Positions 7,368-42,614 are shown, counted from the stretch's first letter. The stretch: 46,433 nt of DNA from Candidatus Bathyarchaeota archaeon (GCA_030602965.1 JAUVYS010000002.1:1-46433); one strand, 5' to 3'. Translations and numbers: made by a program. The notes: generated by a model not told the origin, from the sequence alone.

Positions 7368-8234
7368 TTAAACTTTGAATATGCCTGTATCAACCCATTC
7401 ATGTTTTATGATCGTCCACCAATCGATTGCTAAACCTGTTAAAACATACTCGTAAGGTAACCATCCATAACCGTTATCACCCCAACCCGTACCCCAAGAA
7501 TTTCTGATGAGTAACGCTCCAACAGTATTTTTTCTGCAAATATTATTCTTAATCTGCCTATCATTGTTGTATCCAACAGCCACCACAGCATGACCTCCAA
7601 GAATCCTTTCTCCACGACATGGATAAGGAATCTTCCCATCTCCTGCTGCTTGTCTGATTGAACTGTAAACTGTAAATCCGAACATGGATGGCAGGCCAGC
7701 CGCTAAATTCGTTTTGATTCGAGCTAACAAAATGTCTTTAGGTGTAAGTGAAGGATCTAACCTCACATACTTAAGTGGTTGATAATTTTGTGCAAAAGAA
7801 TAACAAAACGCGGAAGGCTCATCATCAAATTTACTGATGACATACGGCATATATTCCTCCGGAGGAACACCGAATAATCTCATTGCTCCCATAGTTGTAC
7901 GGAGGTATGCTCCAGTGTCTCCAGTCCAATGAAGCAATTTCCGTGTTACCTTGTAAAGGAAGAGTCTGGATGCATCAATATGTCTTCCAAAAGCCTTCCG
8001 TTCATAATATTCAACTAAAGATATACCAGCGTTTGCTGTGCAGGAACCGAGGGCACCTTGATCCTCAATCGGTGGACACCACGCACGGAGATCCACAGCA
8101 GTTGGAAGACCAACTTTTAAAGGCTCAACAATCCCCATTGTTTCTATCATAGATTTAACTTTTTCATGTTCCAGTGTGTAATCTCTAAAATCAGGTAAAT
8201 CAGGAAGCCATCCCATACTTCTTACTTCACTCAT
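7368..8234 (-). CDS. papain-family (C1A) cysteine peptidase
   Basis: QGALGSC (catalytic Cys), GGHAVVAVGY (His) and NSWGTGWGDNGYGW (Asn-Ser-Trp) appear in the canonical order. Confidence 0.88.
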   Translation of the reverse strand: MSEVRSMGWLPDLPDFRDYTLEHEKVKSMIETMGIVEPLKVGLPTAVDLRAWCPPIEDQGALGSCTANAGISLVEYYERKAFGRHIDASRLFLYKVTRKLLHWTGDTGAYLRTTMGAMRLFGVPPEEYMPYVISKFDDEPSAFCYSFAQNYQPLKYVRLDPSLTPKDILLARIKTNLAAGLPSMFGFTVYSSIRQAAGDGKIPYPCRGERILGGHAVVAVGYNNDRQIKNNICRKNTVGALLIRNSWGTGWGDNGYGWLPYEYVLTGLAIDWWTIIKHEWVDTGIFKV

Positions 8235-8510: not shown

Positions 8511-9026
8511 CTAAAGAATGATGCTCATAGTTTCCATTGTTCTCGGTAAAACTACCCACGCGCTTAACCATGCATTTACATGTGGTTTCACTGGATCTGC
8601 TTCTGACACAATTTCAAAACTGAAAGTATCTTTAAAAATGGGTTGAGGATACATAGCAGCCGTTTTTTCTTCTTTTAATGCTACAAACTTGGTGAACCAA
8701 TCGGAAAGATATCTGATGAAACAGCCTTCATACCACTTCATAGAAACAAAATCCACGTCTGTACTGAACATGCCGACAGGATAAAACACTACATTACTCT
8801 TTAAAGTTACACAGTGTTCCCCTACAGGCATTTCATAAGTAGGCCAACCGAAATGAACAGGTTGAAAACCTACAACTGACATACGAATTCTCTGTTCTTC
8901 TTCAATCTTAGCTGCTTCTGCTATTGCATCTTCATATCTACTTAACGCACGAACATTATTATTCATGAAATTCTGAAGAAGATTTTTAGTGCTTAATTCC
9001 TCAGTTTCAGGATATAAAAAAACCAT
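8511..9026 (-). CDS. hypothetical protein with an MVFLYP N-terminus; paralog of 26422..26970
   Basis: Shares RYxDA..EAA.I..E.RI+M....PVH.G.P and the C-terminal VLPRTM motif with 26422..26970. Confidence 0.7.
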   Translation of the reverse strand: MVFLYPETEELSTKNLLQNFMNNNVRALSRYEDAIAEAAKIEEEQRIRMSVVGFQPVHFGWPTYEMPVGEHCVTLKSNVVFYPVGMFSTDVDFVSMKWYEGCFIRYLSDWFTKFVALKEEKTAAMYPQPIFKDTFSFEIVSEADPVKPHVNAWLSAWVVLPRTMETMSIIL

Positions 9027-9090
9027 AATTACTATTTAGTTTTTAAATTAATAAGAGTTTGCAGATACCTATGCTAATACGCGAGAATCT

Positions 9091-9276
9091 TCATCGGATA
9101 CTTGTTTCTCTTCGCCAATCATAATACCATCCATAGAAAGTTTCTCTCTCCAAAAAATCAAGTATTAAGTATTTTCGTAAATAAATACAATAAAACTTCA
9201 CAAGTTGCCTCTTAACTTTGTAAGGAAAATCTTTTGGGAATTGCCCTTTTGTATTAATCATTTCAGTCTCGCTCAT
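9091..9276 (-). CDS. hypothetical protein (61 aa)
   Basis: ORF on the dominant strand. Confidence 0.5.
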   Translation of the reverse strand: MSETEMINTKGQFPKDFPYKVKRQLVKFYCIYLRKYLILDFLERETFYGWYYDWRRETSIR

Positions 9277-12737: not shown

Positions 12738-12902
12738 TCAGTCTGTTTTTATCCGTCTTACTATAGGTGGACGTTTCTTCTGGAGAACACGGTATCCACA
12801 ATGAGAACATTTAATGCGACCACCGCGCATTTCTAGTTCTTTATATGAAGTGTCACGTCCACATCGAATACATTTATACATTAATTCGTCTTTTTCACTC
12901 AT
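12738..12902 (-). CDS. rpoP: RNA polymerase subunit P (RpoP/Rpb12)-like zinc ribbon, 54 aa, absent from the ORF track
   Basis: MSEKDELMYKCIRCGRDTSYKELEMRGGRIKCSHCGYRVLQKKRPPIVRRIKTD matches the Y.C..CG...i+C..CGyR+L.KkRpp...+vk pattern. TAATG coupling links it to the upstream ORF. Confidence 0.7.
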   Translation of the reverse strand: MSEKDELMYKCIRCGRDTSYKELEMRGGRIKCSHCGYRVLQKKRPPIVRRIKTD

Positions 12903-13153
12903 TAATAACAAAACCCTTGTTCACGATCATATTTACATTTACGTCGAATCGGGGCGGCGCGGTTCCACCAAAGCTTCATATCTCCAGCTTCCCGTCGTTG
13001 CTGTACACGACAATGACTACGACAATACTCATTTTGTTCAAGAATATTCACTTGTCTATATCGTCTTCCCCTTAACCTTCTCATACAAAGCATACAATCT
13101 GATATAGGAGGATCGATTACGTTTTGCATCTCTATAATCATTAAAGACTGCAT
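12902..13153 (-). CDS. Cys-rich basic protein (83 aa; alternative start at MIIEM)
   Basis: CMLC...YCRSHC...C motifs. First gene of the operon that contains the RpoP-like ORF. Confidence 0.55.
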   Translation of the reverse strand: MQSLMIIEMQNVIDPPISDCMLCMRRLRGRRYRQVNILEQNEYCRSHCRVQQRREAGDMKLWWNRAAPIRRKCKYDREQGFCY

Positions 13154-13196: not shown

Positions 13197-13733
13197 GTGG
13201 CTGGTTTGGATAAAGATAAGATTTCGTTGGCTAAACTGTTTCGATCCAAAAAAAAATTGAATACTCCCCTGCAACGGGCATTATACAAACCGTCACTAAT
13301 AGAATTATTAACAGCGGAACCGGAAGAGGACGGGGTGATCGTGGAGGATGTTGCAGTCGTCCTTAAACCTTATGGAAAAACTAAAAGTATGATAGCACGC
13401 GTTTTTCCTTTGATTGAAATCCAAAAATTTAAGCCGTTGATCGACAGAAAAAAAATAACTGGATTAAAAATAACAGTGAAGGATGGTGCGTTAGCATGTT
13501 TAGTCGCTTCGGGCTGTGGAACTGTAAGTCAAATAACAGGTTTTTTACGCGCAGTCTCAGTACATTACCCTGAATTTAAAGATGTGAAAACCGAGACGGT
13601 TGGCCAGGCTCTCAGCAGATTAGTTGCAGGCAGAATCATTCAACCTTCTTCAGATTATGTGTCTGGAGAAAAAGTGCAATGCTTATCAGTGCCTAAACAA
13701 AAAGAATTATTATACAGAGAACGATGGTGGTAA
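13197..13733 (+). CDS. putative DNA-binding protein with two winged-helix-like segments (178 aa, GTG start)
   Basis: LIELLTAEPEEDGVIVEDVAVVL and TVSQITGFLR...TVGQALSRLVAGRII segments. Confidence 0.5.
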   Translation: MAGLDKDKISLAKLFRSKKKLNTPLQRALYKPSLIELLTAEPEEDGVIVEDVAVVLKPYGKTKSMIARVFPLIEIQKFKPLIDRKKITGLKITVKDGALACLVASGCGTVSQITGFLRAVSVHYPEFKDVKTETVGQALSRLVAGRIIQPSSDYVSGEKVQCLSVPKQKELLYRERWW

Positions 13734-13734
13734 C

Positions 13735-15243
13735 GTGCCACTGACAAAAGAACAGTTAAGATTGATTTGGGATCGTTGGAGAACAAAGTATCCCTGGGAT
13801 GTTCTTAAACGTACTTTTCCTTTTCCTCAAAACCTTATTTCATTATATGATTGGTGGACAGGAATCTTACATTCAAGAGGAGTAGACATTGACGAATATG
13901 ATTTTGAAGCTTATCTTGATCCAACTTTAACAAGAAAAGAACATGAACAACTCCTTGAAACATTGATTACTGCTCCTCCAGGAGAAGAAATGTATGAAGC
14001 ATGGGCGCAAGAAGCCATAAATAAAATACAGGATGAAGCTAGAGAAGCCGGATTATTAGAACCGTACGAAAAAAAAATTAGAAGTCTTGAACGAACAGAA
14101 AAAAAATCCAAACGAAAATATGAGAAAGCGAAAGAATTAGAAGATGAATTACGAAGAGAACTCCGAGAAAAAGAGGGTGAGGTTGAACGATTAAAACTAA
14201 CTAAAAAAGTCACTGTGAAATTCACACGTGACTATCCTAGTTTTGTCGGGTATGATTTAGAAACTTATGGTCCCTTCAAAACAGGTGAATTAACAAGTCT
14301 TCCAGAAGCAAACGCCGCCATCTTAATTGAACAAAAAGTGGCTTCTATTTGGGGTATACCTAAAATTGAAAAAGTTTTACCGGTAATGCCTCCAAGAGAA
14401 TTGACAAAAGAAGAGAAAAAGAGGCTTCAAGACGTTTTTAACGCTGCTCTTTTTGATGGTTTAGGCCGGATACCTGCAAGCACTATTTCTAAGTTCAGGG
14501 TTGAACTCGAAAAAATTAAGGATCTGTCTTATGTTGAAGCAGAGAAACGTATTTTAGAGTTAGCACAAGAAATTGTTGGAATGATTATAGCCACTAAAAA
14601 AATTGTGCCTGCCAGACCGCCTAGAAAAGTTGAAGTTTATCGTCCACCACGAGAAGAAGATGAACTCTACGCTATGCCTCATGTTTCACCTGCCGAACCT
14701 CCTGAATGGCCGTTAGAACCGCCTGTAATGAAGTTTCCACGAAGCCCCTCAAGTCGAGAGGAACAAGCATTTTGGAAAGCTTTTCAGTATAAACTTCAAA
14801 CGCAGGGATTTAATCCTTGGGAGTGGCAACGAGAATTTAACAATTATATTTCTAAGATGCAGTTCCGTAGCTGGAAAGCTCTTGTTAAAGCCTACGAATT
14901 GTTTGTTGAAACCATTAAGGAAAAGAAAGAGCTTCCACCGTTATGGCAGTGGAGCGGGGTTCCACCTCCAAGCTTAAACTATTTGCCAAAAGAATTAGAA
15001 AAGAAAAGAGCAGGAGCCATAATTCACTACACATCAGTATTGATTAGAAACGCTAGACGTGCGCGTGAACCTTATCAACCAACCTTAGAAGAACTGAGAG
15101 AGGATCTCGGTGATATTATGGGTATAACTAATGTAACATTTGATGAAATAAAAACTGCTTTAATGGAAGCTTACAAAGAAAAAGACGTAAGACTAATAGG
15201 GATTACACTGGAAGAGTTAAACAATTTTCTGGAAGCAACCTAA
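13735..15243 (+). CDS. large hypothetical protein (about 502 aa; E/K coiled-coil plus Pro-rich segments)
   Basis: The GTG at 13735 follows GGTGG and the upstream stop. Track start 13624 or the ATG at 13657 are alternatives. Confidence 0.65.
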   Translation: MPLTKEQLRLIWDRWRTKYPWDVLKRTFPFPQNLISLYDWWTGILHSRGVDIDEYDFEAYLDPTLTRKEHEQLLETLITAPPGEEMYEAWAQEAINKIQDEAREAGLLEPYEKKIRSLERTEKKSKRKYEKAKELEDELRRELREKEGEVERLKLTKKVTVKFTRDYPSFVGYDLETYGPFKTGELTSLPEANAAILIEQKVASIWGIPKIEKVLPVMPPRELTKEEKKRLQDVFNAALFDGLGRIPASTISKFRVELEKIKDLSYVEAEKRILELAQEIVGMIIATKKIVPARPPRKVEVYRPPREEDELYAMPHVSPAEPPEWPLEPPVMKFPRSPSSREEQAFWKAFQYKLQTQGFNPWEWQREFNNYISKMQFRSWKALVKAYELFVETIKEKKELPPLWQWSGVPPPSLNYLPKELEKKRAGAIIHYTSVLIRNARRAREPYQPTLEELREDLGDIMGITNVTFDEIKTALMEAYKEKDVRLIGITLEELNNFLEAT

Positions 15244-15551: not shown

Positions 15552-15729
15552 TATTCCACCTTTCTGGCCTAGTAACAAGAGGCCGGCAGGATTAATTCGT
15601 TGCCATTTCGCGACCATTTTATATCACTGAGGGTAAATGTGGTGAACTCAGACATTTAAAACTTCCGTGAACGTGAGGGTTATTGATCTGAACAAAAAAC
15701 TAATAAGTGTCTACTACGTGTTTAATTGC

Positions 15730-16320
15730 ATGCAAACTTGTTCGGATGAAGCTGTAGCTTGGTTCTTCATGGGTGAAGGAAATGCCACGTTTGAGTGTAT
15801 GCAAAGACATGAGCAAAGAGGACTTTCAGCTATTTTAGGCTACCAAGTAAGACCATATATATCAATTTCAAACACTGACTTAACCCTCATGAGGTTACTA
15901 AGAGGTTGGTTTAAAGCTAAAAAGATAAAACATAATGTGTATATACCAAAAACCAAACCACCTCGTAAACCTTGTGCGGTTTTAAAAATAGGACGCGTTG
16001 TAGATGTGAAAAAATTCTTAGAGATTATTTTGCCATACCTTATAGGACGAAAACAGACGGTTTGCCAACTTATGTTGGAATGTTTAAATAAATTTGGAAG
16101 AGAAGGATGGAGTGAGATTATAAAAACGAAGGGAATAATAACTCGTACAAAAAAAGGAAGGATCTCAAGTTTGATCATAAACTGGGATGTGGAACAAGAG
16201 AAGAAAAGGTTTTTAGAGATAATGAGATACAGAGATTACATCTTATCCATTAATAGTGGACGGAAAGCAAAAAATAACTACGCCTATTTTGCTAATCTTT
16301 GGGGGATGGAAATTGGGTAG
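15730..16320 (+). CDS. LAGLIDADG homing endonuclease (single-motif type), free-standing
   Basis: AVAWFFMGEGNA lies near the N-terminus, followed by LKIGRVVDVKKFLEIILPYLIGRKQ. The track start at 15667 is GTG. Confidence 0.75.
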   Translation: MQTCSDEAVAWFFMGEGNATFECMQRHEQRGLSAILGYQVRPYISISNTDLTLMRLLRGWFKAKKIKHNVYIPKTKPPRKPCAVLKIGRVVDVKKFLEIILPYLIGRKQTVCQLMLECLNKFGREGWSEIIKTKGIITRTKKGRISSLIINWDVEQEKKRFLEIMRYRDYILSINSGRKAKNNYAYFANLWGMEIG

Positions 16321-17629: not shown

Positions 17630-18676
17630 TTACCCCCTCCTTTCATATAGAAAAGGTATATCATCTAAAAAAGATTTATCATAGGAATAGGTTGAAAACG
17701 AAGTAACAAGATAAGTTAATCCTGCTACTCCTAAACCTACTAGCAATGAAACAACAGGTTTTTTTGTAGCAACAAGTGTGACTGTTCCCGTTCCTATTCC
17801 TAAACCTAATACTATTGGATATACCGTTGGAAGTGTGGGTGTGGCAAGTTTCTGGTACATCGAGTAAGCGGGTTTCACGTTAAGATCCACGGTTACCAAT
17901 CCCATGTAATCACTGTAGTTTGTTGATTCTTCAGGTAAAGCATAGTCTTGGAATGTGTACCAAAAAATTTTTTGTACACTGTAATCTTTAAGAAATTGGT
18001 CAAGATCCTTCAAGTATTCTGCTTGTCCTTCTAAACCAAAAGTTAAACTGCTTACTCCTGCTTCTGTGATCCATAACGGTTTTGGCGAAGTAGTATTTAT
18101 TATGTTTTGTAAATAGTTGCCGTATTCTTCTTCAGCAAGATAAATATGGTATGATGCTATGTCACAATAGGATGCTGCACCGAGGTTCCAACAGTCTTGA
18201 ACAAGTTGATCTGAGCCTGGTTGAGGTGACATTGCGCTGAACACTATTGGTTTTCCGGTTGGATTCATTACTTCATAAATTTTTTGTAGCATATCCACGA
18301 TGTGCTGTGCAGAACCATCTTGGTACCCTAATTGAAATTGTGGTATATTCGGTTCATTCCATGCTTCCCATGCATCAATGTCTGGAAAAACATTTTTTGT
18401 GTTTATTAACGCTGTTTCCCAATCGTTGAGGGTGAAAGTAGGTGATTCATTCACAATGTATCTATCTAAGATTCCAAGTATTTTCATTCCGTTTGCATGA
18501 GCGTTTGTTATGACCGAGTTCATTCGGTCAATTAACCATTGTACCGTCGGTGAAAGAATTTCCACTCGCACCCATTCACATCCTAACGCCTTGATAAGGC
18601 TCCAATAAGCCGCTTCGTCATAGTATGGTTTTTCTATATCCCACGTATGTATTTGTACTCCTTTCATTTTTTTCAC
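17630..18676 (-). CDS. clan GH-A (TIM-barrel, GH5/GH39-like) glycoside hydrolase with C-terminal TM anchors
   Basis: WEAWNEPN (acid/base Glu) and PLWITEAGV (nucleophile Glu) at typical spacing. Two hydrophobic helices near the C-terminus. Confidence 0.75.
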   Translation of the reverse strand: MKKMKGVQIHTWDIEKPYYDEAAYWSLIKALGCEWVRVEILSPTVQWLIDRMNSVITNAHANGMKILGILDRYIVNESPTFTLNDWETALINTKNVFPDIDAWEAWNEPNIPQFQLGYQDGSAQHIVDMLQKIYEVMNPTGKPIVFSAMSPQPGSDQLVQDCWNLGAASYCDIASYHIYLAEEEYGNYLQNIINTTSPKPLWITEAGVSSLTFGLEGQAEYLKDLDQFLKDYSVQKIFWYTFQDYALPEESTNYSDYMGLVTVDLNVKPAYSMYQKLATPTLPTVYPIVLGLGIGTGTVTLVATKKPVVSLLVGLGVAGLTYLVTSFSTYSYDKSFLDDIPFLYERRG

Positions 18677-19552: not shown

Positions 19553-21112
19553 TTAGTTGACACCCACATAAGTTATTATGTCATTCAACGTGCCGATGCA
19601 CCATATTCTATCTGTATTATCTATATCATAACTGACGGTGCAACCAGGTCTCAGAGCGTAGCCAGTGCCCGCAACCACAGTATTATCATTCCCTACGTAA
19701 ACCACAGCGTTACCCAAAGTTCTGTCAGAATCATTCTCTATCGTCACGCTTTTACAAGCATTCGCTGGAAATTGTTGTGCAGCCCCACCCATTGTAACTT
19801 GTCCATGAATTATAGATGTTGGTGATGCTTCTTCGGTTTCAAGAGGTTTACCTTCCTCCTGGTTAATCATCATTACAAAGCTGCGTTTGACTACTGCTTC
19901 ATCCACGAGAAAATTGGTGAGTGTCGTTCCTGCAGCGCTTGTTATCACGTATATGGCAACGTAAGTTACCGCTGATAAGTTGGCTCCAACACCTATCACC
20001 CCGTCTACTTCACTCATTAAACGATGGTAATGATGCCACTGGTCGTATTGAATATCGGCAAGAGGAATTTCCCAGTAAAACAGGTTGCCCGCATCTGTTC
20101 CCAACGCAATATACAGGTTAGTTATTGTGCCGCCTACAGGCGTTGGAACATACATGAAGCACATAACTTTTGCGTGAGTGCTATACACACTTAAATCTAA
20201 AGCCGCTGGAGGAACAAAAGATACTCCACCTAAAACTCCACCTGCAACTTTATCCCATTCAACACTGTTAGTACCCTGTCCTCTATGATCAGTGTTTAAA
20301 GCAAGATTCAATGTGCTGCCTTCAAGTGAAACACCGGCAAGAGAGTCGAAACCTGCCAGTAACACTTTAGCTGGAGCTACAGGTATGCTGCCATCAGGAT
20401 AAACTTCACCATCATCTGTAAAATCTGTTAATTGAACTTTTCCAACTTGACGGGTTGGTCGATCAATTACGTCTACTGCTCCTCCAGCTAAAACATCCGA
20501 GAAACTGAAAAGGTAGAATATACAGTCTTGAGTTGCAGACGCCGCCCAAGCAGGAGGTGTCAATGAAACACAGAAGTTTCCTGCATGAGTTGGAGTTGAA
20601 GAGTCTATTCCTACTTCAACCTGTCCCGCAACAGAAGCAGATAGCCAGATAACGATAACATAGTCTTGTTGAGGTTCAAGAGTGTATGGTGTGGTGAAAT
20701 GAAAATTCACTAGCTCAATAGTTAATCCTAAAGATGGCTCTGTGCCTAACACGTTATCGCTTGTAGCTAACACTCCGCCCGCTATGTCTGGAACAGCGTC
20801 TACACCAACCACTGTGCCTGCTAAAACCCTGTAAAGCCTTGCTTGAAGAATATTTCCCGCAACAGCGAAGGCTGCGTTTCTTTGAAGATGAAACGATACG
20901 TCTGTCAACCGTAACAGTGCAATGGGTGAGGTGAAGGCTTGACCGCATGCCTCGTTAACCGCGTTTAAAATTGTGCTTGTATCCTGGTTTGCTTTGCCGT
21001 AGCTTTCAATAAGGTGGCTTAACAAGTTTCCCCAATTGATAGGTAACGGGTTAGCTACTCCTACATTGGCTCCGTCAATCCATAAATCTACTTTTTGTCT
21101 TGGTTCAGCCAA
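19553..21112 (-). CDS. large beta-rich structural-type protein (519 aa, TTG start)
   Basis: Longest ORF of the module. Rich in G, A, T and V with no TM segments. Confidence 0.7.
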   Translation of the reverse strand: MAEPRQKVDLWIDGANVGVANPLPINWGNLLSHLIESYGKANQDTSTILNAVNEACGQAFTSPIALLRLTDVSFHLQRNAAFAVAGNILQARLYRVLAGTVVGVDAVPDIAGGVLATSDNVLGTEPSLGLTIELVNFHFTTPYTLEPQQDYVIVIWLSASVAGQVEVGIDSSTPTHAGNFCVSLTPPAWAASATQDCIFYLFSFSDVLAGGAVDVIDRPTRQVGKVQLTDFTDDGEVYPDGSIPVAPAKVLLAGFDSLAGVSLEGSTLNLALNTDHRGQGTNSVEWDKVAGGVLGGVSFVPPAALDLSVYSTHAKVMCFMYVPTPVGGTITNLYIALGTDAGNLFYWEIPLADIQYDQWHHYHRLMSEVDGVIGVGANLSAVTYVAIYVITSAAGTTLTNFLVDEAVVKRSFVMMINQEEGKPLETEEASPTSIIHGQVTMGGAAQQFPANACKSVTIENDSDRTLGNAVVYVGNDNTVVAGTGYALRPGCTVSYDIDNTDRIWCIGTLNDIITYVGVN

Positions 21113-21359
21113 TTACTACACCTAATTCAAATTCGAGTACGGTAAGCTCTACTTCTTCTTCATGTTTCTCTATTTTATTTCCATGCATAATTGACTGTTT
21201 CACTTTAACTTTAACTTTCTTCTTTTTATGTTTCGGTTTTTTCAGTTTCTTAACCTTCACTCTTTTCGGCTTCTTTTCAGGCTTTTCAGGCTTCTCCTCT
21301 TCTTCTTCTTCAGGCTCCTCTTCTTCTTCTTTCGGTTTCTTCTCTTTTTCTTTGTTCAT
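21105..21359 (-). CDS. charge-block K/E-rich protein (84 aa from MNKEKEK)
   Basis: An acidic block (EEEEEPEEEEEE) is followed by a basic block (KKPKRVKVKKLKKPKHKKKKVKVKVK). Confidence 0.55.
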   Translation of the reverse strand: MNKEKEKKPKEEEEEPEEEEEEKPEKPEKKPKRVKVKKLKKPKHKKKKVKVKVKQSIMHGNKIEKHEEEVELTVLEFELGVVIG

Positions 21360-21360
21360 G

Positions 21361-21837
21361 TTAGTAACCTGATGTTTCAACTAATCCAGCTAAGTTCACG
21401 TTTAAATCAAACGTGGGGTTTCCAGAGAAGACAGCGAAAAGAATATAGTAATATTTGCCTTCTATAGTTGGGATGCCCTTGGTGAATTTTAGTTTTACAA
21501 CTCCATACCCAAATTTTTGTGCCATTATTTGTTCCAGAACTACGCCGGATTCATCATATCTAGCGAATCCTCCATAAACAAGAGCATTAATGAGTGTAGC
21601 GAATTGTATCTCATAAAAATGAAAAGGTAATGCTGAAGCGGGAACTAAACCTGCTAATGCTACGCCATAGATATTAAAGAAAGGCAGAGTTGGAACACCA
21701 GTATATGCAGCGCTATACATTACTCTGCCTTGATCGCTTCGGATGAGGTCGCTTGTGCCATACTCCACATTTATAGAGTAGTCTGGTAAGCCGACGCCTA
21801 ACGGTGTAACACTAAAAGTTTTTTCGATAACGACCAA
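21361..21837 (-). CDS. beta-rich protein, paralog A (158 aa, TTG start, MVVIEKTF); candidate capsid-type protein
   Basis: The first about 25 aa and about 40 nt are nearly identical to 21847..22311. AGGTG SD is present. Confidence 0.65.
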   Translation of the reverse strand: MVVIEKTFSVTPLGVGLPDYSINVEYGTSDLIRSDQGRVMYSAAYTGVPTLPFFNIYGVALAGLVPASALPFHFYEIQFATLINALVYGGFARYDESGVVLEQIMAQKFGYGVVKLKFTKGIPTIEGKYYYILFAVFSGNPTFDLNVNLAGLVETSGY

Positions 21838-21846
21838 TTATGACAC

Positions 21847-22311
21847 CTACAAACTTAGTTGATAACGGGTTAGATCCATATCTACACCGTGAACAGTATA
21901 TACACCAAGTAATGCTCCGAGAGAATGATTAGTTATTTCAAGTCTATAACCTGACAAGAATTTGCCGATGGGCATCCCCCGCGACAAATGTTTCTCTATG
22001 TTTTGATAATCATATTCTTGAAGAAAAGCCGCTTCTGGACCAGTTATAGGTACTGCTATCGCATCTAATTGTAACAATACATTTGCAGGTACACTAACAA
22101 AAAAGTCGTACAGCATCCAAACTCTGTCAACAGGCCGTGTTTGAAGGTCTAAAACAGTTACGCCAGGATTAAGCATTGCTTGCACAGAATAGGTATATGC
22201 GGTTTCCCAACTGCGAATAACAGGCTCGACACTAACTTCAACGTTTTGGCTGTAATCTCTTCTTCCAATTCCAAGAGGTGTAACAGCAAAAGTTTGTTCT
22301 ATAACGACCAA
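21847..22311 (-). CDS. beta-rich protein, paralog B (154 aa, TTG start, MVVIEQTF); candidate capsid-type protein
   Basis: Tandem duplicate of 21361..21837. Confidence 0.65.
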   Translation of the reverse strand: MVVIEQTFAVTPLGIGRRDYSQNVEVSVEPVIRSWETAYTYSVQAMLNPGVTVLDLQTRPVDRVWMLYDFFVSVPANVLLQLDAIAVPITGPEAAFLQEYDYQNIEKHLSRGMPIGKFLSGYRLEITNHSLGALLGVYTVHGVDMDLTRYQLSL

Positions 22312-22722: not shown

Positions 22723-23262
22723 TTAGAACCCGCGTAATACTGCTTCGCCTTCAGGAGTTAATTCTATGTATCTTTTAGGAGCTTCACCTGAAGCTAGAGC
22801 TACAGTATACTCGATGATTTCAAAGTATAATGTTTGTGCGCCAGCAGCTTTATTGATTTTCATATGTATTTCTATAGAGTAACTCCACTTATCCACTTCG
22901 TAAGGCCCAGTTAAAGCCGCTAAAACATTGTCTAACGGATTTATTGCTACACTGCTCAGCATAGGCTCGTCCTGCCAATACATGTTACATTGAACTAGTG
23001 TACTGAAAGAAAGATAGTGGATGTGAACAATTCTTTTTTGATCTATAGCACCGTGTAAAGGAGTGTATGCAGGTGCTCCTGTCGGTGCTTGTGCAGTTAA
23101 TGGATCTCCAGGGGTTTGAGTGCTAGCAGCATTATATGGCACTGCTTGCCTATTACGCTTCACCTTTGTAACAACGTAAAATTTCGCTCCGATTTTGAAG
23201 ACGTGTCCAGCTTTACTTACGGGAAGTCTCTCTGTCCTTATTTGGTATGGTATAAAACTCAT
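22723..23262 (-). CDS. hypothetical protein (179 aa)
   Basis: ORF in the structural chain. Confidence 0.65.
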   Translation of the reverse strand: MSFIPYQIRTERLPVSKAGHVFKIGAKFYVVTKVKRNRQAVPYNAASTQTPGDPLTAQAPTGAPAYTPLHGAIDQKRIVHIHYLSFSTLVQCNMYWQDEPMLSSVAINPLDNVLAALTGPYEVDKWSYSIEIHMKINKAAGAQTLYFEIIEYTVALASGEAPKRYIELTPEGEAVLRGF

Positions 23263-23325: not shown

Positions 23326-23970
23326 TCATAATTTTGCGTGTGTATCTCCAAAAAACCGTGCGTGATTATAATTGTAAAAGAGATATTTAGCAGTGAGAAT
23401 ATTGTTTTGTTCTTCCATCATTGTTACATAATACAAAAAACTGTTTTTCATGTCGTTAAAGGCTTCTCCCGCAGTTTTTCCTTCATCTAACCCTAAAGGA
23501 AACTGTAATGCACTGATAAAAGAGGGGTAACTATCATTGTCTGGAGGTCCAGAATCTGACGCTGTGAAAATGAAGGGGCGGTCAAACGCTACAACTGCTG
23601 ATGCTCCGTGTTGTATTAGTGCAGGTGCAAGTTCTTTTCCACAGTTACAAGTAAACAAATAAACGATACGGTCACTCATCCAGGAAGGGTTTTCATCCTG
23701 TATTTTCAGGTTTAAGTCAGGATCAAAATTTTTTATGCCTAAAATAACGTTTTCGTTGCATCCTTTAATTCCTTTACTTCCACCATGACTATTCAAAATT
23801 ACTAGTCGTGGATCAAATTTGACCAGGGCATCATACAAAGTTGATAAAATTGCAGTTCTTAAAAAAACAACTTTATGTTTTTTTGCTAAGTGATCAGCTA
23901 ATGAACGGAGATAATAATATCCATATTGAATACTTGTGTCCTCTGGACAACAAACAATCAATATAGACAT
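23326..23970 (-). CDS. caspase/gingipain-fold (clan CD) cysteine peptidase candidate
   Basis: RLVILNSHGG (His-Gly) and IVYLFTCNCG (Cys) follow hydrophobic strands, then GASAVVAF. Confidence 0.5.
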   Translation of the reverse strand: MSILIVCCPEDTSIQYGYYYLRSLADHLAKKHKVVFLRTAILSTLYDALVKFDPRLVILNSHGGSKGIKGCNENVILGIKNFDPDLNLKIQDENPSWMSDRIVYLFTCNCGKELAPALIQHGASAVVAFDRPFIFTASDSGPPDNDSYPSFISALQFPLGLDEGKTAGEAFNDMKNSFLYYVTMMEEQNNILTAKYLFYNYNHARFFGDTHAKL

Positions 23971-23991
23971 ACATTCTGTATTCCTTGCAGA

Positions 23992-24291
23992 TTATCTTAG
24001 TCGCTTACGGATCACTCTTTCTCCTCGTCTAGCCGCGGCTTCTGCGAGTTCTCGACCTAAAGCTGTGAAAATAAAGAAGCCTATTACTAATCCAACAGCC
24101 ATTCCTGGAATGAATCGATCGAAAGATGATGTTTGAAAAGATTGTTTTTCAAGCCGTAATTGAAATGGTTGTTTCCCAAGCCGTAACTGAAATGATTGCT
24201 TCCCAAGCCGTAGTGTTTTGCTAACACGTTCGCCAAGTCGTTCGCCAAGTGTTTTTTCTTCAAATTCTACTTCTTCATATAAGAAGACCAT
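23992..24291 (-). CDS. tagged (MVFLYEEVEF) single-pass membrane protein with internal 9-aa repeats
   Basis: LRLGKQSFQ x3, LGER x2, and the TM segment IPGMAVGLVIGFFIFTALG. Confidence 0.7.
   Translation of the reverse strand: MVFLYEEVEFEEKTLGERLGERVSKTLRLGKQSFQLRLGKQPFQLRLEKQSFQTSSFDRFIPGMAVGLVIGFFIFTALGRELAEAAARRGERVIRKRLR
24134..24214 (-). repeat. three in-frame 27-nt tandem repeats; a 12-nt x2 repeat lies at 24227-24250
   Basis: Units at 24134-24160, 24161-24187 and 24188-24214 encode LRLGKQSFQ-type units. Confidence 0.85.
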
Positions 24292-24422
24292 TATTTCGTT
24301 CTCCTTTCATATTCACGGTCTGCTTCTGATAATGCTTTTCCTAACGTGGTTCCACGTTTTTTTTCTTGTTCCGCCTCATCAAGATTAAGAACTTTCTTAT
24401 CCACAACTATTTTTTTTGTCAT
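24291..24422 (-). CDS. small charged protein (43 aa), absent from the ORF track
   Basis: GAGGTGA SD. TAATG coupling to the downstream gene. Confidence 0.45.
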   Translation of the reverse strand: MTKKIVVDKKVLNLDEAEQEKKRGTTLGKALSEADREYERRTK

Positions 24423-24426
24423 GTTT

Positions 24427-25035
24427 TCACCTCTCCTTCACAGCCTTAATTACAATCGCTGTTCCTATAAGACCCGCAACGATTAATACTCCGTATATAA
24501 TTTCTTTTGGAATTTTCGCTAGGGCTTCTGGAACTGCTTTGATCCAAGATCCTATTTCTCGTGCATTCTCTAAAAGAAAATATCCTGCGATAAATATGCC
24601 TACTACTATAATAACAGCCTTGATTATGCTAATTATAGCAGCAGAGACAACAAATGAATGAACATCTACGTCAGGTATATCAGTCTTAAAAAATGTAGTT
24701 GTTGTAACATAACACCGATAAGCGTTTTCGTATCGTTCATAATCATAATATAGCCATTCCCAACGAAAAGATACATTTATCGAGATTATTTGTAATGCAC
24801 GGCCTTCCTTCAGAAATTCTGCGGTTAATTTCTCGAATACTGCTGCCTTCATTCTTTCTGTAATCTCTGGTTCATGCCAATTTGGACTTACAGAGGGTGG
24901 AGAATACCAAAGTGCAGTCTCAAGAAGCCACTTCCATTCATACTCAAACAATTTTTGAAGTGACCGAACAACTTGAGGTTTAAGAGATGAAATAGTTTTG
25001 TCTTTAAATTCTAATTCTTCATATAACAAAACCAT
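24427..25035 (-). CDS. tagged (MVLLYEELEF) membrane protein, 2 C-terminal TM
   Basis: The ATG at 25035 follows GGAG. TM segments are VVSAAIISIIKAVIIVVGIFIAGYFLL and IIYGVLIVAGLIGTAIVI. Confidence 0.7.
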   Translation of the reverse strand: MVLLYEELEFKDKTISSLKPQVVRSLQKLFEYEWKWLLETALWYSPPSVSPNWHEPEITERMKAAVFEKLTAEFLKEGRALQIISINVSFRWEWLYYDYERYENAYRCYVTTTTFFKTDIPDVDVHSFVVSAAIISIIKAVIIVVGIFIAGYFLLENAREIGSWIKAVPEALAKIPKEIIYGVLIVAGLIGTAIVIKAVKER

Positions 25036-25095
25036 TATTTTCTCCATCCATTAATATTTAATTCTAAGTTTTATGAGTTTCCACTGGCTGCACGA

Positions 25096-25953
25096 TTAAC
25101 TCTTGAGATGTAATTCAAATTGGTTACAAACCGTTTCTGCTTCACAATCATTAGGTATAGGATCTCCCCAACCTTCAATTCCAAAAGCTATTTCTTCTAT
25201 TGTCCATCCATCACCTATAGGCGGTGCTTCTCCCCGATTACTTCCTCCAATATTTGTTTCTTGATTAATAGGAATGTAACTTTCACCTTCTGTTAAATTG
25301 TGATGCCAAAAAAATGTTTGTGCACCTTTCTTGTATCTACAATCAACATAAATGTTACAAGCTCCCAATTTCTTCATTATCTCATAATCAAGAATAATGT
25401 AGCCTTCAACGGCTGGAATAGAATTTAAAAGCTGTTTCAAATGGCAAAGAGCCACTCTTCCATAAATTGTTTGATGTTCCTTCAAATAAAGACTGACACG
25501 ATCATCCAATCCCTGTATTTTATAATGCAGAACAGTTCCAGAACCGCCGCCGGCCCAACTCCAAGATGCTCCTGTGAAATGCCAATCAGCCACATCTTTT
25601 TCTAGACTTGAATCAAAACCTTCTTCAACCCAACGCCCTACATTAAGACTGGAATTCCTGTTAACAATAACATATTCTGATGGTGCAGCAGCAGTAATCA
25701 TCGGCAACGAAATCAAAGAAGCTAACCCTAAACTTCCAACCGACAAAAGAACAGGATTAATAGTCTCTGGTTTCTTAGAATCATATATACCTAAAGAAAT
25801 AATTGTAGCTGCCGCGCTACCAATTAAAAAAAGTTTCTGCCAAGGAAAACTAGGTTTTTCAAGAGGGGGAGGTCCATTATCCCCTTTTATTTTTATCGAG
25901 AAAGGTCTAACATCAAACCTTGTTTCCTCCTGTAAATCATAAAGAAATGGCAT
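25096..25953 (-). CDS. tagged (MPFLYDLQEE) membrane protein (285 aa from the ATG at 25953)
   Basis: The tag and the RFDVRPFSI motif are shared with 25967..26368. Two TM segments precede a large C-terminal domain. Confidence 0.65.
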   Translation of the reverse strand: MPFLYDLQEETRFDVRPFSIKIKGDNGPPPLEKPSFPWQKLFLIGSAAATIISLGIYDSKKPETINPVLLSVGSLGLASLISLPMITAAAPSEYVIVNRNSSLNVGRWVEEGFDSSLEKDVADWHFTGASWSWAGGGSGTVLHYKIQGLDDRVSLYLKEHQTIYGRVALCHLKQLLNSIPAVEGYIILDYEIMKKLGACNIYVDCRYKKGAQTFFWHHNLTEGESYIPINQETNIGGSNRGEAPPIGDGWTIEEIAFGIEGWGDPIPNDCEAETVCNQFELHLKS

Positions 25954-25966
25954 AGCTGTTTCCCAG

Positions 25967-26368
25967 CTATGGAGATCTATTTGGAGGGCTTTCGATCCAC
26001 ACTTCACCACTTATGTTTTTAGCGGGCATTATAAAGAACATGTCATAATAGTCAACTACGCCTGGATCTAAAGATGAAAAAGGCCATTCATAAGCGTCTA
26101 CTCCATCCGCCGCTAATTGTGGTTGAAACTCTGCTCTGACGTTTCCAGTGTTTCTGATGTCACCATAAACCTTTACGCTTTGTCCTGCTTCGGCTTCAGA
26201 AGGATAATTTATAGATACAAACTCTACACTGATTTGTGGTTGAAATCTAAGATTGATATTAAAACTTCTAACATCGTATCTTGCAGGGGAAAACTTGCGA
26301 GAAGCAAACCGTAAACTATATTTCTTTTGAGGTATTTTTTCAAATACACTCTCATATAGTAAAACCAT
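25967..26368 (-). CDS. tagged (MVLLYESVF) protein with a CARDB/Ig-like beta domain
   Basis: AGQSVKVYGDIRNTGNVRAEF is typical of CARDB-like domains. Confidence 0.6.
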   Translation of the reverse strand: MVLLYESVFEKIPQKKYSLRFASRKFSPARYDVRSFNINLRFQPQISVEFVSINYPSEAEAGQSVKVYGDIRNTGNVRAEFQPQLAADGVDAYEWPFSSLDPGVVDYYDMFFIMPAKNISGEVWIESPPNRSP

Positions 26369-26421: not shown

Positions 26422-26970
26422 TTAGACGTAGATTTTGGATTCAGCCATTGTTCGTGGCAATACTATGAAGGCTAACAGCCATCCAGGTGCAGGGCTTGAT
26501 GTAGAATGCACATAAAACCTGAAGGTTTCTCCGCCTTTGAAAACGTAATGGTCTAGATTGCCTTTGTATGCGCCTTGTCGTTCTAGGAAGAAGCATACTG
26601 GCCCAGTGAACCATTCACCGATCCAATCTATTCCACCACCACTCCACCATCGCATATAGTCAAAGTCCATTGTTGGCAAACCGAAACTGTCATCAACACC
26701 CCAATTCATTATTCCCCAAGGGAAAAATGCAGTGTTCTGCAGCAATGTTTTCTGTGTGTTTCCTTGCGGTAGATTATATGCTAATGCAGTTGGTAAAGGT
26801 AATCCGAGATGAACAGGTTTATGGCTTTCGATACGCATTTTAATGCGTTCACGATCGGCGATAGCAGCAGCTTCTAGTTTAGCATCTCTATATCTCATAG
26901 ACATTATCGTATAAAATTCATCTCTTGAAGTAGGAGTAAAAACTGGTCCTTGAATTATCGCGACCATCAT
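26422..26970 (-). CDS. hypothetical protein, paralog of 8511..9026 (182 aa)
   Basis: Shared internal motifs and the C-terminal VLPRTM motif. Confidence 0.7.
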   Translation of the reverse strand: MMVAIIQGPVFTPTSRDEFYTIMSMRYRDAKLEAAAIADRERIKMRIESHKPVHLGLPLPTALAYNLPQGNTQKTLLQNTAFFPWGIMNWGVDDSFGLPTMDFDYMRWWSGGGIDWIGEWFTGPVCFFLERQGAYKGNLDHYVFKGGETFRFYVHSTSSPAPGWLLAFIVLPRTMAESKIYV

Positions 26971-26982
26971 TCTAATCCACTC

Positions 26983-27405
26983 CTAAATTTCCTCGACTAA
27001 TTCTTGTTCAGGAAACTCGATTGGTGTAGGATACTGAAGCCCTTCTTTTAATGGAAGTTTTCTAGGTGTTCCAGATGATCTTCTTCTGAATTCATAGGTT
27101 CCACGTTTTCTTAACTCGTCCAGTATGATGATACTTGTGCCTGTTGCAAGTCCTGCACCGCCCATTGCACCTAGCAACGCTCTGTTTTCTGGATCTGTTG
27201 TGATTTTACCTGTTTTGTGGCTGTAATATGCAAGTCCTATACCTAGGATTCCTTGAATTAATCCTATAATTCCACTGATTTTAATTCCTGATTTAGCTAC
27301 GGCTGGATCGCCTAAAACTCGTCCGCCTTTCAAAGCATATTCAGATACTAATGGAACGCCTACGCCTAAAACCGCGCCTCCCGCAGTCTTTAATACCACG
27401 GACAT
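26983..27405 (-). CDS. glycine-rich hydrophobic protein (140 aa); candidate membrane or virion protein
   Basis: GGAVLGVGVP..., SGIIGLIQGILGIGLAYY and GAMGGAGLATGTSIIIL segments. First gene after a TATA box. Confidence 0.65.
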   Translation of the reverse strand: MSVVLKTAGGAVLGVGVPLVSEYALKGGRVLGDPAVAKSGIKISGIIGLIQGILGIGLAYYSHKTGKITTDPENRALLGAMGGAGLATGTSIIILDELRKRGTYEFRRRSSGTPRKLPLKEGLQYPTPIEFPEQELVEEI

Positions 27406-27522: not shown

Positions 27523-28284
27523 TCAAGTTTTCATCCCCCATTTCTTCACGGTTTTTGTTTCAATAAATTCTAGAATGATGTTTTCCATTAAGATGCCGAG
27601 AAGGGAGATGCAGAAGAGGGTGCCAAGCATTCCCGCCGCGTTTAATTGAAATCGATTAACGTAGATAAGCCAGCCTAACCCTCCTTTACCGCCTACTGCA
27701 CCGAACACTAATTCGGCGGCGACTACGCTTCTCCAAGCGACTCCCCAAGCACTTCTGAAACCGGTGATAAGATGGGGAAGAGAGGCAGGTAATAATATGT
27801 ATCTGACTAAAGGTAATCCTTGAAGACCATAATTTTTTCCAACTTCCACTGTGATTCCTCTAAGAGTGTTCAGTCCATTCATGATGTTAAGGGTGTAGGG
27901 ACATAATGACCCGAAAATAGTTATGAAGATGATAGCGTTCTCTCCTAGGCCGAACCATAAAATAGCGAAGGGAAGCATTGAAATGGCTGGAACTGGATTA
28001 AATATTGAAATTATCGCTTCTACTACAGGTCTGGTTCTTTGTGAAAGAGCAGATAAGGTTCCAAGGATGAAACTTAAACAACTGCTAATTGAAAGTCCTA
28101 TGAATAATAACTTGAAAGTGTAAGTGATAGCTTCAAAAAGCCTGGTGTAATGAGTTATCATATAGATGATTGTGTCTGTTATTGATGGAAAAATAAAGGG
28201 GGAGAAGATACGTATTCGCGCAATTGTTTCCCAAAGGGTTAATGCTGAGAAAACGAAAAAGATTTTGATATGTGACTTTTTCAT
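27523..28284 (-). CDS. ABC transporter permease, NitT/TauT (sulfonate/nitrate/taurine) family
   Basis: Six TM segments. NPVPAISMLPFAILWFGLGENAIIFITIFGSLCPYTLN resembles the SsuC/TauC signature region. Confidence 0.8.
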   Translation of the reverse strand: MKKSHIKIFFVFSALTLWETIARIRIFSPFIFPSITDTIIYMITHYTRLFEAITYTFKLLFIGLSISSCLSFILGTLSALSQRTRPVVEAIISIFNPVPAISMLPFAILWFGLGENAIIFITIFGSLCPYTLNIMNGLNTLRGITVEVGKNYGLQGLPLVRYILLPASLPHLITGFRSAWGVAWRSVVAAELVFGAVGGKGGLGWLIYVNRFQLNAAGMLGTLFCISLLGILMENIILEFIETKTVKKWGMKT

Positions 28285-29327
28285 TTTCCTATCAATCCTT
28301 TTGTTTCTGCGAATAGCATATCTTCAAACGTTAATGTTTTTTGTATCAAGTCTAGTTTGTGCATTATTGCTGCTATGTCTTCTACTGCAGATAAACCGAA
28401 AGTTGGATTCCACATTAAGCATGGTTGCCCCAAACGATTCTTAAGGAGCCATAGATCCCAAGCTTCATCTGGTTCGTATTCATAGACTAATCCTATAATT
28501 TTTGATGCTTCCTGCGGATTGTTAATGATGTATTCGGTGGCTTTGAACCACGCTGTCATAACAGCAGATAATAATTCTGGATGTTCTTCACAGAATTCAA
28601 CTCGACCGATAAGAGAGCTTCCTGGAAGAGGAGTACCCCAAATTTCAGTGTCACAAGTAACCATGTGATATTTCGATTTTGTTTCACCTTCAGGATTCAC
28701 TTCAACCGCATTAGCATATTGAATTGTGTAAGGAACTCCAGTGAAAGCACAATCTATTTGTTTTTCTTCCATCAATTGAAAAGCGTCTGGGTGAGTGAAG
28801 AATACACTCACAGCATCAGCTTCTTCTTTTGTTCTACCTAAGTCACCGAAGGCTTTGATTAATCCTGCTTGTTCAATGCTTCCAAGTTTTACAACTCCAA
28901 CTTTGTCTCCACGTTTAATGTCGGCTATTGATTGGATATCCTCTCTCCAAGTCCAAAGTTCATGTTCTTTGCTTCCCATACTTAACAAGATTTTAGTGCC
29001 TATTTGTTGGTCTACTCCTTTAATGGCGGGCGCGATCCCCATAGATCCGAACTCTAAGCTTCCCGCTACAAAAGCCTCATTGATTGCTGTTCCTCCACTG
29101 ATTTTTTGAAATATGCCTATTGCTGTGCCATTTGAGTATTTTTGTAATAGATTAAAGTGATCTATGATAATGTGTTGTCCATAATGAAAACCGAATTGAT
29201 ACGCGAAACGTACTTCGGTAACAGATATTTCAGGAACATAGGGATTAGACATTGAATACAAGAAAACACTAGACAAAATAATTAGAGTTAAAGCTAAAAC
29301 AACTGATACAACTTTATATTTATTCAT
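28281..29327 (-). CDS. ABC transporter substrate-binding protein, NMT1/THI5-SsuA-like
   Basis: N-terminal TM/signal anchor. The ATG at 29327 overlaps the ATPase stop (ATGA). Placed in an operon with the permease and ATPase. Confidence 0.7.
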   Translation of the reverse strand: MNKYKVVSVVLALTLIILSSVFLYSMSNPYVPEISVTEVRFAYQFGFHYGQHIIIDHFNLLQKYSNGTAIGIFQKISGGTAINEAFVAGSLEFGSMGIAPAIKGVDQQIGTKILLSMGSKEHELWTWREDIQSIADIKRGDKVGVVKLGSIEQAGLIKAFGDLGRTKEEADAVSVFFTHPDAFQLMEEKQIDCAFTGVPYTIQYANAVEVNPEGETKSKYHMVTCDTEIWGTPLPGSSLIGRVEFCEEHPELLSAVMTAWFKATEYIINNPQEASKIIGLVYEYEPDEAWDLWLLKNRLGQPCLMWNPTFGLSAVEDIAAIMHKLDLIQKTLTFEDMLFAETKGLIGK

Positions 29328-30046
29328 TGTTTCACCTCCATTTCCTTTAATACTGCTGTCCAATACTTACCAAAGTCTGCGCTGGCAACGTTTCTTGGTC
29401 TAGGTAATTCTATGTCAAATATTGATTGGATTCTGCCTTTTTTAGATAAGACAACCACTCTATCGGCAAGAAATATGGATTCTCGAATGTTATGTGTTAC
29501 AAAGAGTATGGTTATCTTAATTGTTTGCCAGATCTGTACCAGTTCAGACTGTAACCTTCTTCGAGTTTGCGCGTCAAGGCTTCCGAACGGTTCATCCATC
29601 AATAATATGGACGGGTTCATTACAAGCGCGCGTGCAATCGCCGTTCTCTGTTTCATGCCTCCACTCAATTCATGAGGGTATTTGTGTCTTGCATCTGTTA
29701 AACCAACAAGTTCTAACATTTCAAGAGGTTTTCTAGATGATTTATTTCCTGATAGTTTTGGGCCGAAAGCAATATTTTCAATTGTGGTTTTCCAAGGAAG
29801 CAATTGATTTAATTCTTGAAATACCATAAATCTCGTTGGTGACGGTGCAATTATAGGCTTATCATCATGTAATACTGTGCCAGTGTAGGATTCAAAACCT
29901 CCCACCACCCGTAATAAAGTGGTTTTTCCACAACCCGAAAAACCGACTATACAAACAAAATTTCCATCATCTATATTTAGATTGATGTTGTCAAGAACTT
30001 TGTTTGAATCAAAACTTTTTGAAACGTTTCTAAGAGTTAAACCCAC
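29324..30046 (-). CDS. ABC transporter ATP-binding protein (TauB/SsuB-like)
   Basis: Walker A GFSGCGKTT, signature LSGGMKQR, Walker B LLMDEPFGSLD. Confidence 0.9.
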   Translation of the reverse strand: MGLTLRNVSKSFDSNKVLDNINLNIDDGNFVCIVGFSGCGKTTLLRVVGGFESYTGTVLHDDKPIIAPSPTRFMVFQELNQLLPWKTTIENIAFGPKLSGNKSSRKPLEMLELVGLTDARHKYPHELSGGMKQRTAIARALVMNPSILLMDEPFGSLDAQTRRRLQSELVQIWQTIKITILFVTHNIRESIFLADRVVVLSKKGRIQSIFDIELPRPRNVASADFGKYWTAVLKEMEVKQ

Positions 30047-42544: not shown

Positions 42545-42614
42545 TTATAAGGTGTAAGTTATAAGGTGCAAGGTATACGTGATAAGGTATCAGGTGTAAG
42601 GTATACGTGATAAC
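42545..42614 (+). repeat. five tandem 14-bp iterons (centromere/operator-like) abutting the parA start
   Basis: TTATAAGGTGTAAG, TTATAAGGTGCAAG, GTATACGTGATAAG, GTATCAGGTGTAAG, GTATACGTGATAAC. Confidence 0.75.

Follow-up and report, generated by a model that had tools for sequence, protein, structure and literature searches.

A caspase-fold protease candidate from an uncatalogued branch of clan CD and a short N-terminal tag on the proteins encoded beside it in a probably archaeal element

We analyzed the complete 46,433-nucleotide (nt) contig of an uncultivated element (Candidatus Bathyarchaeota archaeon, GCA_030602965.1; hereafter the window), which is probably archaeal and either virus-like or plasmid-like. 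On its minus strand lies a gene for a stand-alone cysteine protease candidate of 214 amino acids (aa) with the predicted fold of clan CD, the caspase-hemoglobinase fold (23326..23970), and directly upstream of it are four genes whose products all begin with one short peptide, M-[VP]-[FL]-L-Y-[ED], which we call the tag. An earlier reading made from the sequence only had proposed the clan CD arrangement on the basis of the motifs VILNSHGG, YLFTCNCG and GASAVVAF, and had suggested that the tagged neighbours could be substrates of the protease.

A search of 5.8 billion proteins returned 29 homologues of the protease, all metagenomic, about 215 aa long and 44-53% identical to it, across which H62, G63, G64, T107, C108, G111 and K112 are invariant. 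We propose His62 (in HGG) and Cys108 (in TC) as the catalytic residues, with Asp11 as a possible third one. The AlphaFold (AF2) model calculated from the homologue alignment has a predicted local distance difference test score (pLDDT) of 96 and a predicted template modelling score (pTM) of 0.92, and its DSSP assignment places H62-G63 right after strand 56-60 and C108 right after strand 102-105, that is, His and then Cys after consecutive strands. Foldseek against the PDB gave 10 matches at E <= 0.001, all 10 to clan CD enzymes (the SAVED-CHAT protease 8tl0 with E 2e-8, caspase-11 and caspase-4 among them), and weaker matches to gingipain R, procaspase-1 and separase. TM-scores were modest, 0.42-0.60 when normalized to the query and 0.53-0.60 for 8tl0. 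Motifs, invariant residues, predicted model and structural matches all support a clan CD fold for this protein, and the structure prediction that the sequence-only reading had suggested as a check came out in favour of this fold.

The protease could not be placed in a described family, as that reading had also stated. Both as a single sequence and as a profile it had no match in Pfam, PHROGs, NCBIfam, PADLOC or the PDB sequences; in particular, the window protein had no Pfam match at E <= 1, leaving the CHAT profile (PF12770) unmatched, and the caspase C14 profile (PF00656) was not matched either. Alignment by hhalign to an approximate human caspase-3 sequence covered only the His strand (LVILNSHGG/VCVLLSHGE; E 0.095, probability 0.6%). 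Membership in the named families C14, C25 or CHAT is not supported, and the protein, a bare catalytic domain with neither sensor nor regulatory domain, represents a clan CD branch that is new and not yet catalogued.

The four tagged genes follow each other on the minus strand. The one next to the protease (tagged gene 1, 23992..24291, 99 aa) starts with MVFLYEE at ATG 24291 and has one C-terminal transmembrane segment. Tagged gene 2 (24427..25035, 202 aa from the tag ATG) starts with MVLLYEE and has transmembrane-like hydrophobic stretches near its C-terminus; tagged gene 3 (25096..25953, 285 aa from the tag ATG) starts with MPFLYD and has such stretches in its N-terminal third. Tagged gene 4 (25967..26368, 133 aa) starts with MVLLYES and has a weak CARDB-like beta-sandwich match (Pfam CARDB, E 0.0062, under the family cut-off). 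The presence of the tag on all four had been recognized from the sequence, and we place their true start codons at ATGs 24291, 25035, 25953 and 26368; two of the listed starts were too long. The open reading frame (ORF) listed for tagged gene 2 began 4 codons before ATG 25035, and the GTG start listed for tagged gene 3 (26010) would overlap the upstream gene, an overlap that ATG 25953 removes.

Two further copies lie in the window at 14-17 kb from the protease gene: a fifth tagged gene of 94 aa (6451..6735, plus strand; MVFLYED), 17 kb away and on the opposite strand, and a minus-strand ORF with a degenerate tag (8511..9026; MVFLYPETEE). All 5 window matches to the degenerate pattern ATG-SYN-YTN-YTN-TAY-GA coincide with ORF starts, and 100 dinucleotide-preserving shuffles yielded 0 matches. 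The copies differ in synonymous codons (GTT/GTC, TTT/TTC/TTA/TTG, CTT/CTA/TTA), which places the constraint at the protein level rather than the DNA level, and on the same grounds we rejected a DNA- or RNA-level account of the tag. The mRNA around the start at 26368 showed no unusual folding (z = -1.2). We also considered two other motifs. The R(F/Y)DVR(P/S)F.I patch that the sequence-only reading had noticed in two of the tagged proteins (25096..25953 and 25967..26368) is present and real but weak (BLASTP E 0.033 for the pair), and we rejected it as a component of the system, as it was confined to these two of 242 tagged ORFs, with 0 of the 240 in relatives having it. The peptide IPFLYERRG, 4 residues from the end of the glycosyl hydrolase encoded at 17630..18676 (...DDIPFLYERRG), was treated as a chance match given the background of about 0.05 relaxed motifs per kb described below.

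A scan of metagenome contigs yielded 80 related loci, and in their same-strand ORFs (40 aa or longer) we counted a relaxed form of the motif, x[ILFVM][LIMV]Y[ED]. Over the 3 kb upstream of the protease gene its density was 1.2-1.5 per kb per locus, versus about 0.05 per kb elsewhere, an enrichment of about 25-fold. All 41 loci with at least 4 kb of upstream sequence (40 metagenome loci and the window) have 2-7 tagged ORFs beside the protease gene, and 115 of the 116 matches directly after an ATG are on the protease strand. The genomic association between tag and protease is strong. Over 214 unique instances, Tyr and Glu/Asp are conserved in 100%, position 3 is Leu in 89%, and the consensus reads (M)-P(65%)/V/G/S-[L/I]-L-Y(100%)-E(93%)/D-[S/T/N/E]-[Y/V/T]. 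Wherever the tag directly follows the start codon (129 of 129), position 2 is occupied by P, V, S, A, C, T or G, precisely the set with which methionine aminopeptidase can remove the initiator Met. In a further 69 cases the tag lies 2-12 residues inside the ORF (e.g., MSEFDRF-PLLYES), and a free N-terminus is therefore not obligatory.

By BLAST, the tagged ORFs make up at least 11 mutually unrelated families, most of them with 1-3 transmembrane segments that are typically C-terminal. Tagged gene 1 belongs to a small tagged family (about 73 aa) found in 52 loci immediately upstream of the protease gene (median position -255 nt). Apart from the tag itself, and with one small exception, we detected no homologues of the window's tagged proteins in the other loci. 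The tag persists while the proteins that bear it turn over, as would be expected of an address label that can be transferred.

Family A, a conserved neighbour (26422..26970, minus strand, 182 aa; found by tblastn in 55 loci), is untagged and lies upstream of the protease gene, and 11 other loci have, immediately downstream of that gene, a tagged paralogue of family A that starts with MPLLYE(S/T)IFEE. The ORF with the degenerate tag at 8511..9026 is the window equivalent of this paralogue (BLASTP against 26422..26970: 35% identity, E 5e-25). As family A exists in tagged and untagged versions, the tag is an add-on. The AF2 model of family A (pLDDT 74) shows a beta sandwich preceded by a long N-terminal helix, and its residues 1-13 have pLDDT < 50; since the N-terminus is predicted to be disordered, the position of the tag in the paralogue should be accessible.

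At least 11 tagged genes have an ACG codon right before the tag (L008 5072, L015 2119, L033 10701, L036 10698, L030 9389 and others). These are preceded by a Shine-Dalgarno-like GGAGGTG/GAGGTGA 8-12 nt upstream and by an in-frame stop before any canonical start, so that ACG seems, from this sequence context, to serve as an initiation codon in this group of elements. Several genes of family B, a neighbour described below, show the same ACG pattern (K-T-SFKP).

We also looked at the protease superfamily beyond these loci. A profile search of 1.84 billion cluster representatives gave 876 at E < 0.001, only 20 of them at E < 1e-30. In an alignment of 174 members (45 of the tag-associated subfamily and 129 remote ones), His is present in 173/174 and Cys in 173/174; the remote members, bare proteins of about 215 aa, have His in 128/129, Cys in 128/129 and Asp or Glu at position 11 in 121/129. 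In legumain, Asn42 orients the catalytic His, and by analogy Asp11, just after strand 1, may do the same here. Residue 66, four positions after the catalytic His, is K or R in 43 of 45 tag-associated members whereas most of the 129 remote members, which lack the tag, have D, N, E or S there. This reversal of charge beside the active site is a possible specificity determinant, and a basic residue at this position would fit an acidic residue in the substrate.

Ten remote homologues were compared with Pfam, and none matched at E <= 0.1 except for one sub-threshold Peptidase_C14 hit (E 0.094). Some remote homologues (E about 1e-22 to 1e-25) are part of a three-gene cassette encoding proteins of about 60, 72 and 215 aa (L084 4540..5612, L085 2042..3114, L087 1088..2108). 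Of two members whose surroundings we looked up, neither has a tag; the cassette of one lies between hsdS and hsdR of a type I restriction-modification system and another beside Mrr and AbiEii genes; the cassette had no match in PADLOC and may be an undescribed caspase-like defence module. Another remote homologue, P0193 (641 aa), carries a LAGLIDADG intein directly after its catalytic H-G motif (GLGHGDA|C...), and inteins usually occupy functionally critical sites. A LAGLIDADG homing endonuclease gene is also inserted directly upstream of the protease gene in L001 (9198..10016), overlapping the protease start, and a second one is found in L175 (12725..13447).

Considering that the tag is tightly adjacent to the protease gene, that it is an add-on and that the basic residue at position 66 is specific to the tag-associated subfamily, we read the tag as a portable signal and the protease as its reader. 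We put forward, as a tentative proposal that we hold somewhat short of even chances, that the tag is a short address or processing signal that the adjacent protease reads and clips, releasing or maturing its clients. Proteins with no other relation would thereby be designated as clients of a single assembly pathway. The tag would lie in the cytoplasmic protease as an extended strand, in the way that P4-P1 lies in clan CD enzymes, and the protease would clip it at or beside the invariant Tyr-Glu, a cut that would release or mature the client. The particle built by the module would be virion-like. A further version of this proposal, which we regard as rather doubtful, is that a so far unrecognized group of archaeal virus-like elements has a new protein-addressing system, in which a portable, degron-like label of five residues (Pro-Leu-Leu-Tyr-Glu) is read and removed by a dedicated minimal caspase-fold protease of acidic specificity, and that the pair thereby controls which membrane proteins enter a particle or envelope. 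In this version the label could be moved onto any protein, and either Met removal or initiation at a non-canonical ACG would expose it.

Several observations weigh against a protease that reads the tag. All related loci were fetched through the protease, so the sampling is one-way. About one third of the tags are not at the extreme N-terminus, and two of those in the window are 14-17 kb from the protease gene. Co-occurrence of protease and tag, which the sequence-only reading had expected across related contigs, was complete among the 41 loci with enough upstream sequence and broke down in divergent relatives: L088 has only MSFLLYEE and PIFLFEE, L170 only MEISDILLYRE and MIHELLLYDE, and L171 a sole (M)LYEEAG on a small membrane protein upstream of the protease, while L173 encodes a protease relative (E 8.5e-52) together with families A, B and TM (the latter two described below) and no tag. 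The remote cassettes of defence islands are likewise tag-less, and the superfamily, with its 876 cluster representatives, is far wider than the tag. Regarding the particle, no capsid, portal, terminase or packaging ATPase was recognized among the large ORFs with PHROGs and Pfam. Family A as a capsid protein is not supported, as it had no significant capsid match; Foldseek against PDB and BFVD gave only weak matches to jelly-roll or receptor-binding-like beta sandwiches (E >= 0.02). Searches of IMG/VR with the protease, families A and B and one tag DNA pattern returned no relatives, and the protease, families A and B and a 519-aa protein of the window had no match in GenBank phage records.

The divergent relatives of the same module with fewer or no tags imply that the protease predates the tag, and this is the ground on which the best surviving alternative stands. 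Here the tag would be an assembly or targeting motif read by another partner (family A, B or TM, the membrane or a host factor), and the protease would have other substrates; we consider this possible, if less probable than reading by the protease. The true substrates could be the conserved structural proteins or the protease itself, with the adjacency due to a common late or structural operon. L173, which keeps the module without the tag, fits this idea, as do the age and breadth of the protease family and the distant tagged genes of the window, and the conserved N-termini of family B (MSFxPYxIY) and of untagged family A (LQGPVFAP) could be the real cleavage sites. On the contrary, no conserved gene tracks the tag perfectly, and the other conserved genes, all of which are also present in L173, track it no better than the protease does. 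The tightest positional link of the tagged genes is with the protease gene, the commonest tagged family lying directly upstream of it in 52 loci, and the charge switch at K66 is specific to the subfamily that accompanies the tag.

A feature of N-terminal stability or expression would do without any reader in the module: an exposed Pro-Leu-Leu-Tyr-Glu could set protein half-life in the manner of an N-degron, or the first codons could tune translation initiation. The residues at position 2, permissive for methionine aminopeptidase in all start-adjacent tags, speak for such a feature. We nonetheless find it unlikely, as the 69 internal tags do not fit it, the synonymous codon variation counters a signal at the mRNA level, and the absolute conservation of Tyr and Glu/Asp within one gene neighbourhood is unlike a general expression feature. 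We give a similarly low chance to the protease being a conflict effector, in defence or counter-defence, that cuts host or competitor proteins while the tagged genes are unrelated cargo. The remote homologues beside restriction genes, and a best structural match to a CRISPR-associated SAVED-CHAT protease, lean in that direction; against it stand the absence of any sensor or regulatory domain in a catalytic domain of about 215 aa, a gene position fixed within a conserved structural-looking module in 80 loci and the lack of a PADLOC match.

In sortase, PorU and GPI8, the acyl-enzyme retains the part of the substrate that is N-terminal to the cut. The parallel with sortases that was drawn in the sequence-only reading is mechanistically poor on this point, and a sortase-like transpeptidase that cuts the tag and attaches the client covalently to a lipid, glycan or wall component is very improbable. 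In its favour, the clan CD transamidases GPI8 and PorU do remove sorting signals, the module is flanked by genes for glycan synthesis, in the window as in relatives, and many clients are membrane proteins. With an N-terminal signal, however, the enzyme would hold a hexapeptide and not the client, so that anchoring of the client by the known mechanism is not possible; a C-terminal tripartite signal is lacking, and the protease and clients have no signal peptides, which would make the reaction cytoplasmic.

Maturation and sorting systems that combine a tag with a dedicated protease are already known; new here are the uncatalogued clan CD branch and the N-terminal label. The closest working analogue of the proposed reading is the capsid-targeting sequence (CTS) of phage T4 with its prohead protease gp21, an analogue and not a relative. 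The T4 CTS is a 10-residue N-terminal propeptide on divergent internal proteins that is required for their loading into the prohead and is removed by gp21, and a role in the recruitment of diverse cargo by the phage has been proposed for it (PMC9026906). Both systems put a short N-terminal label on otherwise divergent proteins (IPI, IPII and IPIII in T4; at least 11 BLAST-unrelated families here), the T4 label also ends in Glu, and the protease is encoded in the same structural module. They differ in that gp21 is a serine protease with a herpesvirus-assemblin-type fold whereas the enzyme here is a Cys/His clan CD candidate, in that the T4 clients are soluble basic core proteins whereas those here are mostly membrane proteins, and in that the module here has no identified capsid gene, its cleavage and particle targeting being proposed from the genes.

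The CHAT proteases (SAVED-CHAT of type III CRISPR systems, TPR-CHAT/Craspase) include the best structural match, 8tl0, and have the same order of His and Cys. Unlike them, the protease here has no Pfam CHAT match and no SAVED or TPR sensor or partner domain, and it is about 215 aa long versus roughly 480 aa for the 8tl0 chains; it would have many clients with a common tag as predicted substrates, whereas a CHAT protease has one dedicated substrate, and it lies in a structural-looking module and not in a CRISPR locus. PorU (C25, type IX secretion) and GPI8 (C13) are clan CD enzymes that remove a common sorting signal from many unrelated clients, but their signals are C-terminal, they hand the client over to a lipid or glycan, and neither is related to the protease here at the sequence level. 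As compared with sortases, exosortases and PorU, the motif here is in the first ~12 residues of the clients, and no common C-terminal motif was found among the tagged families.

Double-glycine leaders with C39 ABC exporters and type IV prepilin leaders with PilD/FlaK also combine a short N-terminal leader, diverse clients and one co-encoded peptidase. Those peptidases have other folds (papain-like for C39; an aspartic membrane peptidase), and their leaders are coupled to export or membrane extraction, whereas the tag here has 5-6 residues with no hydrophobic helix after it and the protease is soluble. Adenain, pS273R of African swine fever virus (ASFV) and poxvirus I7 are virus-encoded Cys/His proteases that trim several structural precursors at a short consensus during assembly. 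They belong to clan CE, and their Gly-Gly or Ala-Gly cleavage motifs are usually not at the extreme N-terminus; the element here is virus-like as judged from its genes.

If the protease reads the tag, this would be a minimal clan CD branch of about 215 aa, missing from curated libraries, whose substrate motif is legible from the genome, and a convergent counterpart of T4 CTS/gp21 cargo loading in a probably archaeal element. With the tag as a portable label, the enzyme would be the first clan CD virion-maturation protease and part of a compact, portable tag-protease pair, and, should the specificity be confirmed, a portable tag this short, paired with its small cognate protease, could be a useful tool. 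In addition, the tag corrects start-codon calls (25035, 25953 and the ACG starts elsewhere) and flags the clients of a group of elements that was missed by IMG/VR, the GTDB representative genomes, PHROGs and Pfam. No relative of the protease was found among the GTDB representative genomes, and our literature search found nothing on the tag motif or on caspase-like proteases of archaeal viruses. The superfamily, some members of which lie in defence islands, is an uncharacterized caspase-like family worth describing.

The module also includes conserved, untagged genes. Family TM (26983..27405, minus strand, 140 aa), a glycine-rich membrane protein with the C-terminus ...EEI, was found by tblastn in 50 loci, its median position relative to the protease gene being -3.3 kb. 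Its members have a common acidic C-terminus (ELVEEI, EELIKEI, PQIKEI) and are duplicated in some loci (L001 5645..6022 and 8813..9184); judging from this conserved end, family TM may carry a C-terminal signal of its own. Family B (22723..23262, minus strand, 179 aa), with the N-terminus MSFxPYxIY..RLPxLKxG, lies downstream of the protease gene and was found by tblastn in 53 loci. Profiles of families A and B had no match among the PDB sequences. Between tagged genes 1 and 2 lies a small untagged gene of 43 aa (24291..24422, minus strand) with the motif ...LGKALSEADREYE..., and counterparts with the same motif are present in L001 (8473), L088 (1462) and L170 (275). The gene order common to the relatives is glycan genes, family TM, family A, tagged genes, protease and family B, with a Gins51_C gene further on. 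In the window the protease and tagged genes belong to a same-strand block that runs from about 27405 down to about 17630 and that, from its gene content, looks like a structural or particle module.

The same block contains a pair of paralogues of 158 and 154 aa (21361..21837 and 21847..22311, minus strand) with the common N-terminus MVVIE(K/Q)TF(S/A)VTPLG(V/I)G, followed by a Lys/Glu-rich ORF of 91 aa (21105..21380) and then by the 519-aa ORF; none of these has a homologue in the related loci. At its end lies the glycosyl hydrolase (17630..18676, minus strand; Glyco_hydro_cc, E 1e-6). On the other side, between the module and a block of glycosyl- and methyltransferase genes at 30-40 kb, is an ABC transporter operon (27523..30046, minus strand) encoding an NMT1-like binding protein, a permease and an ATPase; it is absent from the relatives, and the best genome matches of the ATPase, only about 50% identical and from mixed bacteria and archaea, are uninformative about the host.

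The Gins51_C protein (13624..15243, plus strand, 539 aa; Gins51 C-terminal domain, E 4e-15) is likely a replication gene and recurs in the relatives (7 loci by tblastn, with a Pfam match on L174 18215..19036). It points to an archaeal host, as do, taken with it, the Shine-Dalgarno-like GGAGGTG motifs. The window also encodes an HNH endonuclease (15667..16320) and ParA (42607..43362). A papain-type C1 cysteine peptidase (7368..8234, minus strand; PF00112, E 6e-12) sits between the fifth tagged gene and the degenerate-tag paralogue, forming a second neighbourhood of protease and tagged genes within the same element, and it has no counterpart in 83 related loci. Neither direct nor inverted terminal repeats nor tRNA genes were found in the window, whose first 20 positions include C followed by 17 A at the contig start (CAAAAAAAAAAAAAAAAATGG). 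Finally, a zinc-ribbon ORF of 57 aa (12738..12911, minus strand; CIRCG...CSHCGYRVLQKKRPP) presumably resembles subunit P (Rpo12) of archaeal and eukaryotic RNA polymerases, and several more small Cys4 zinc-ribbon ORFs lie at 9.7-11 kb.

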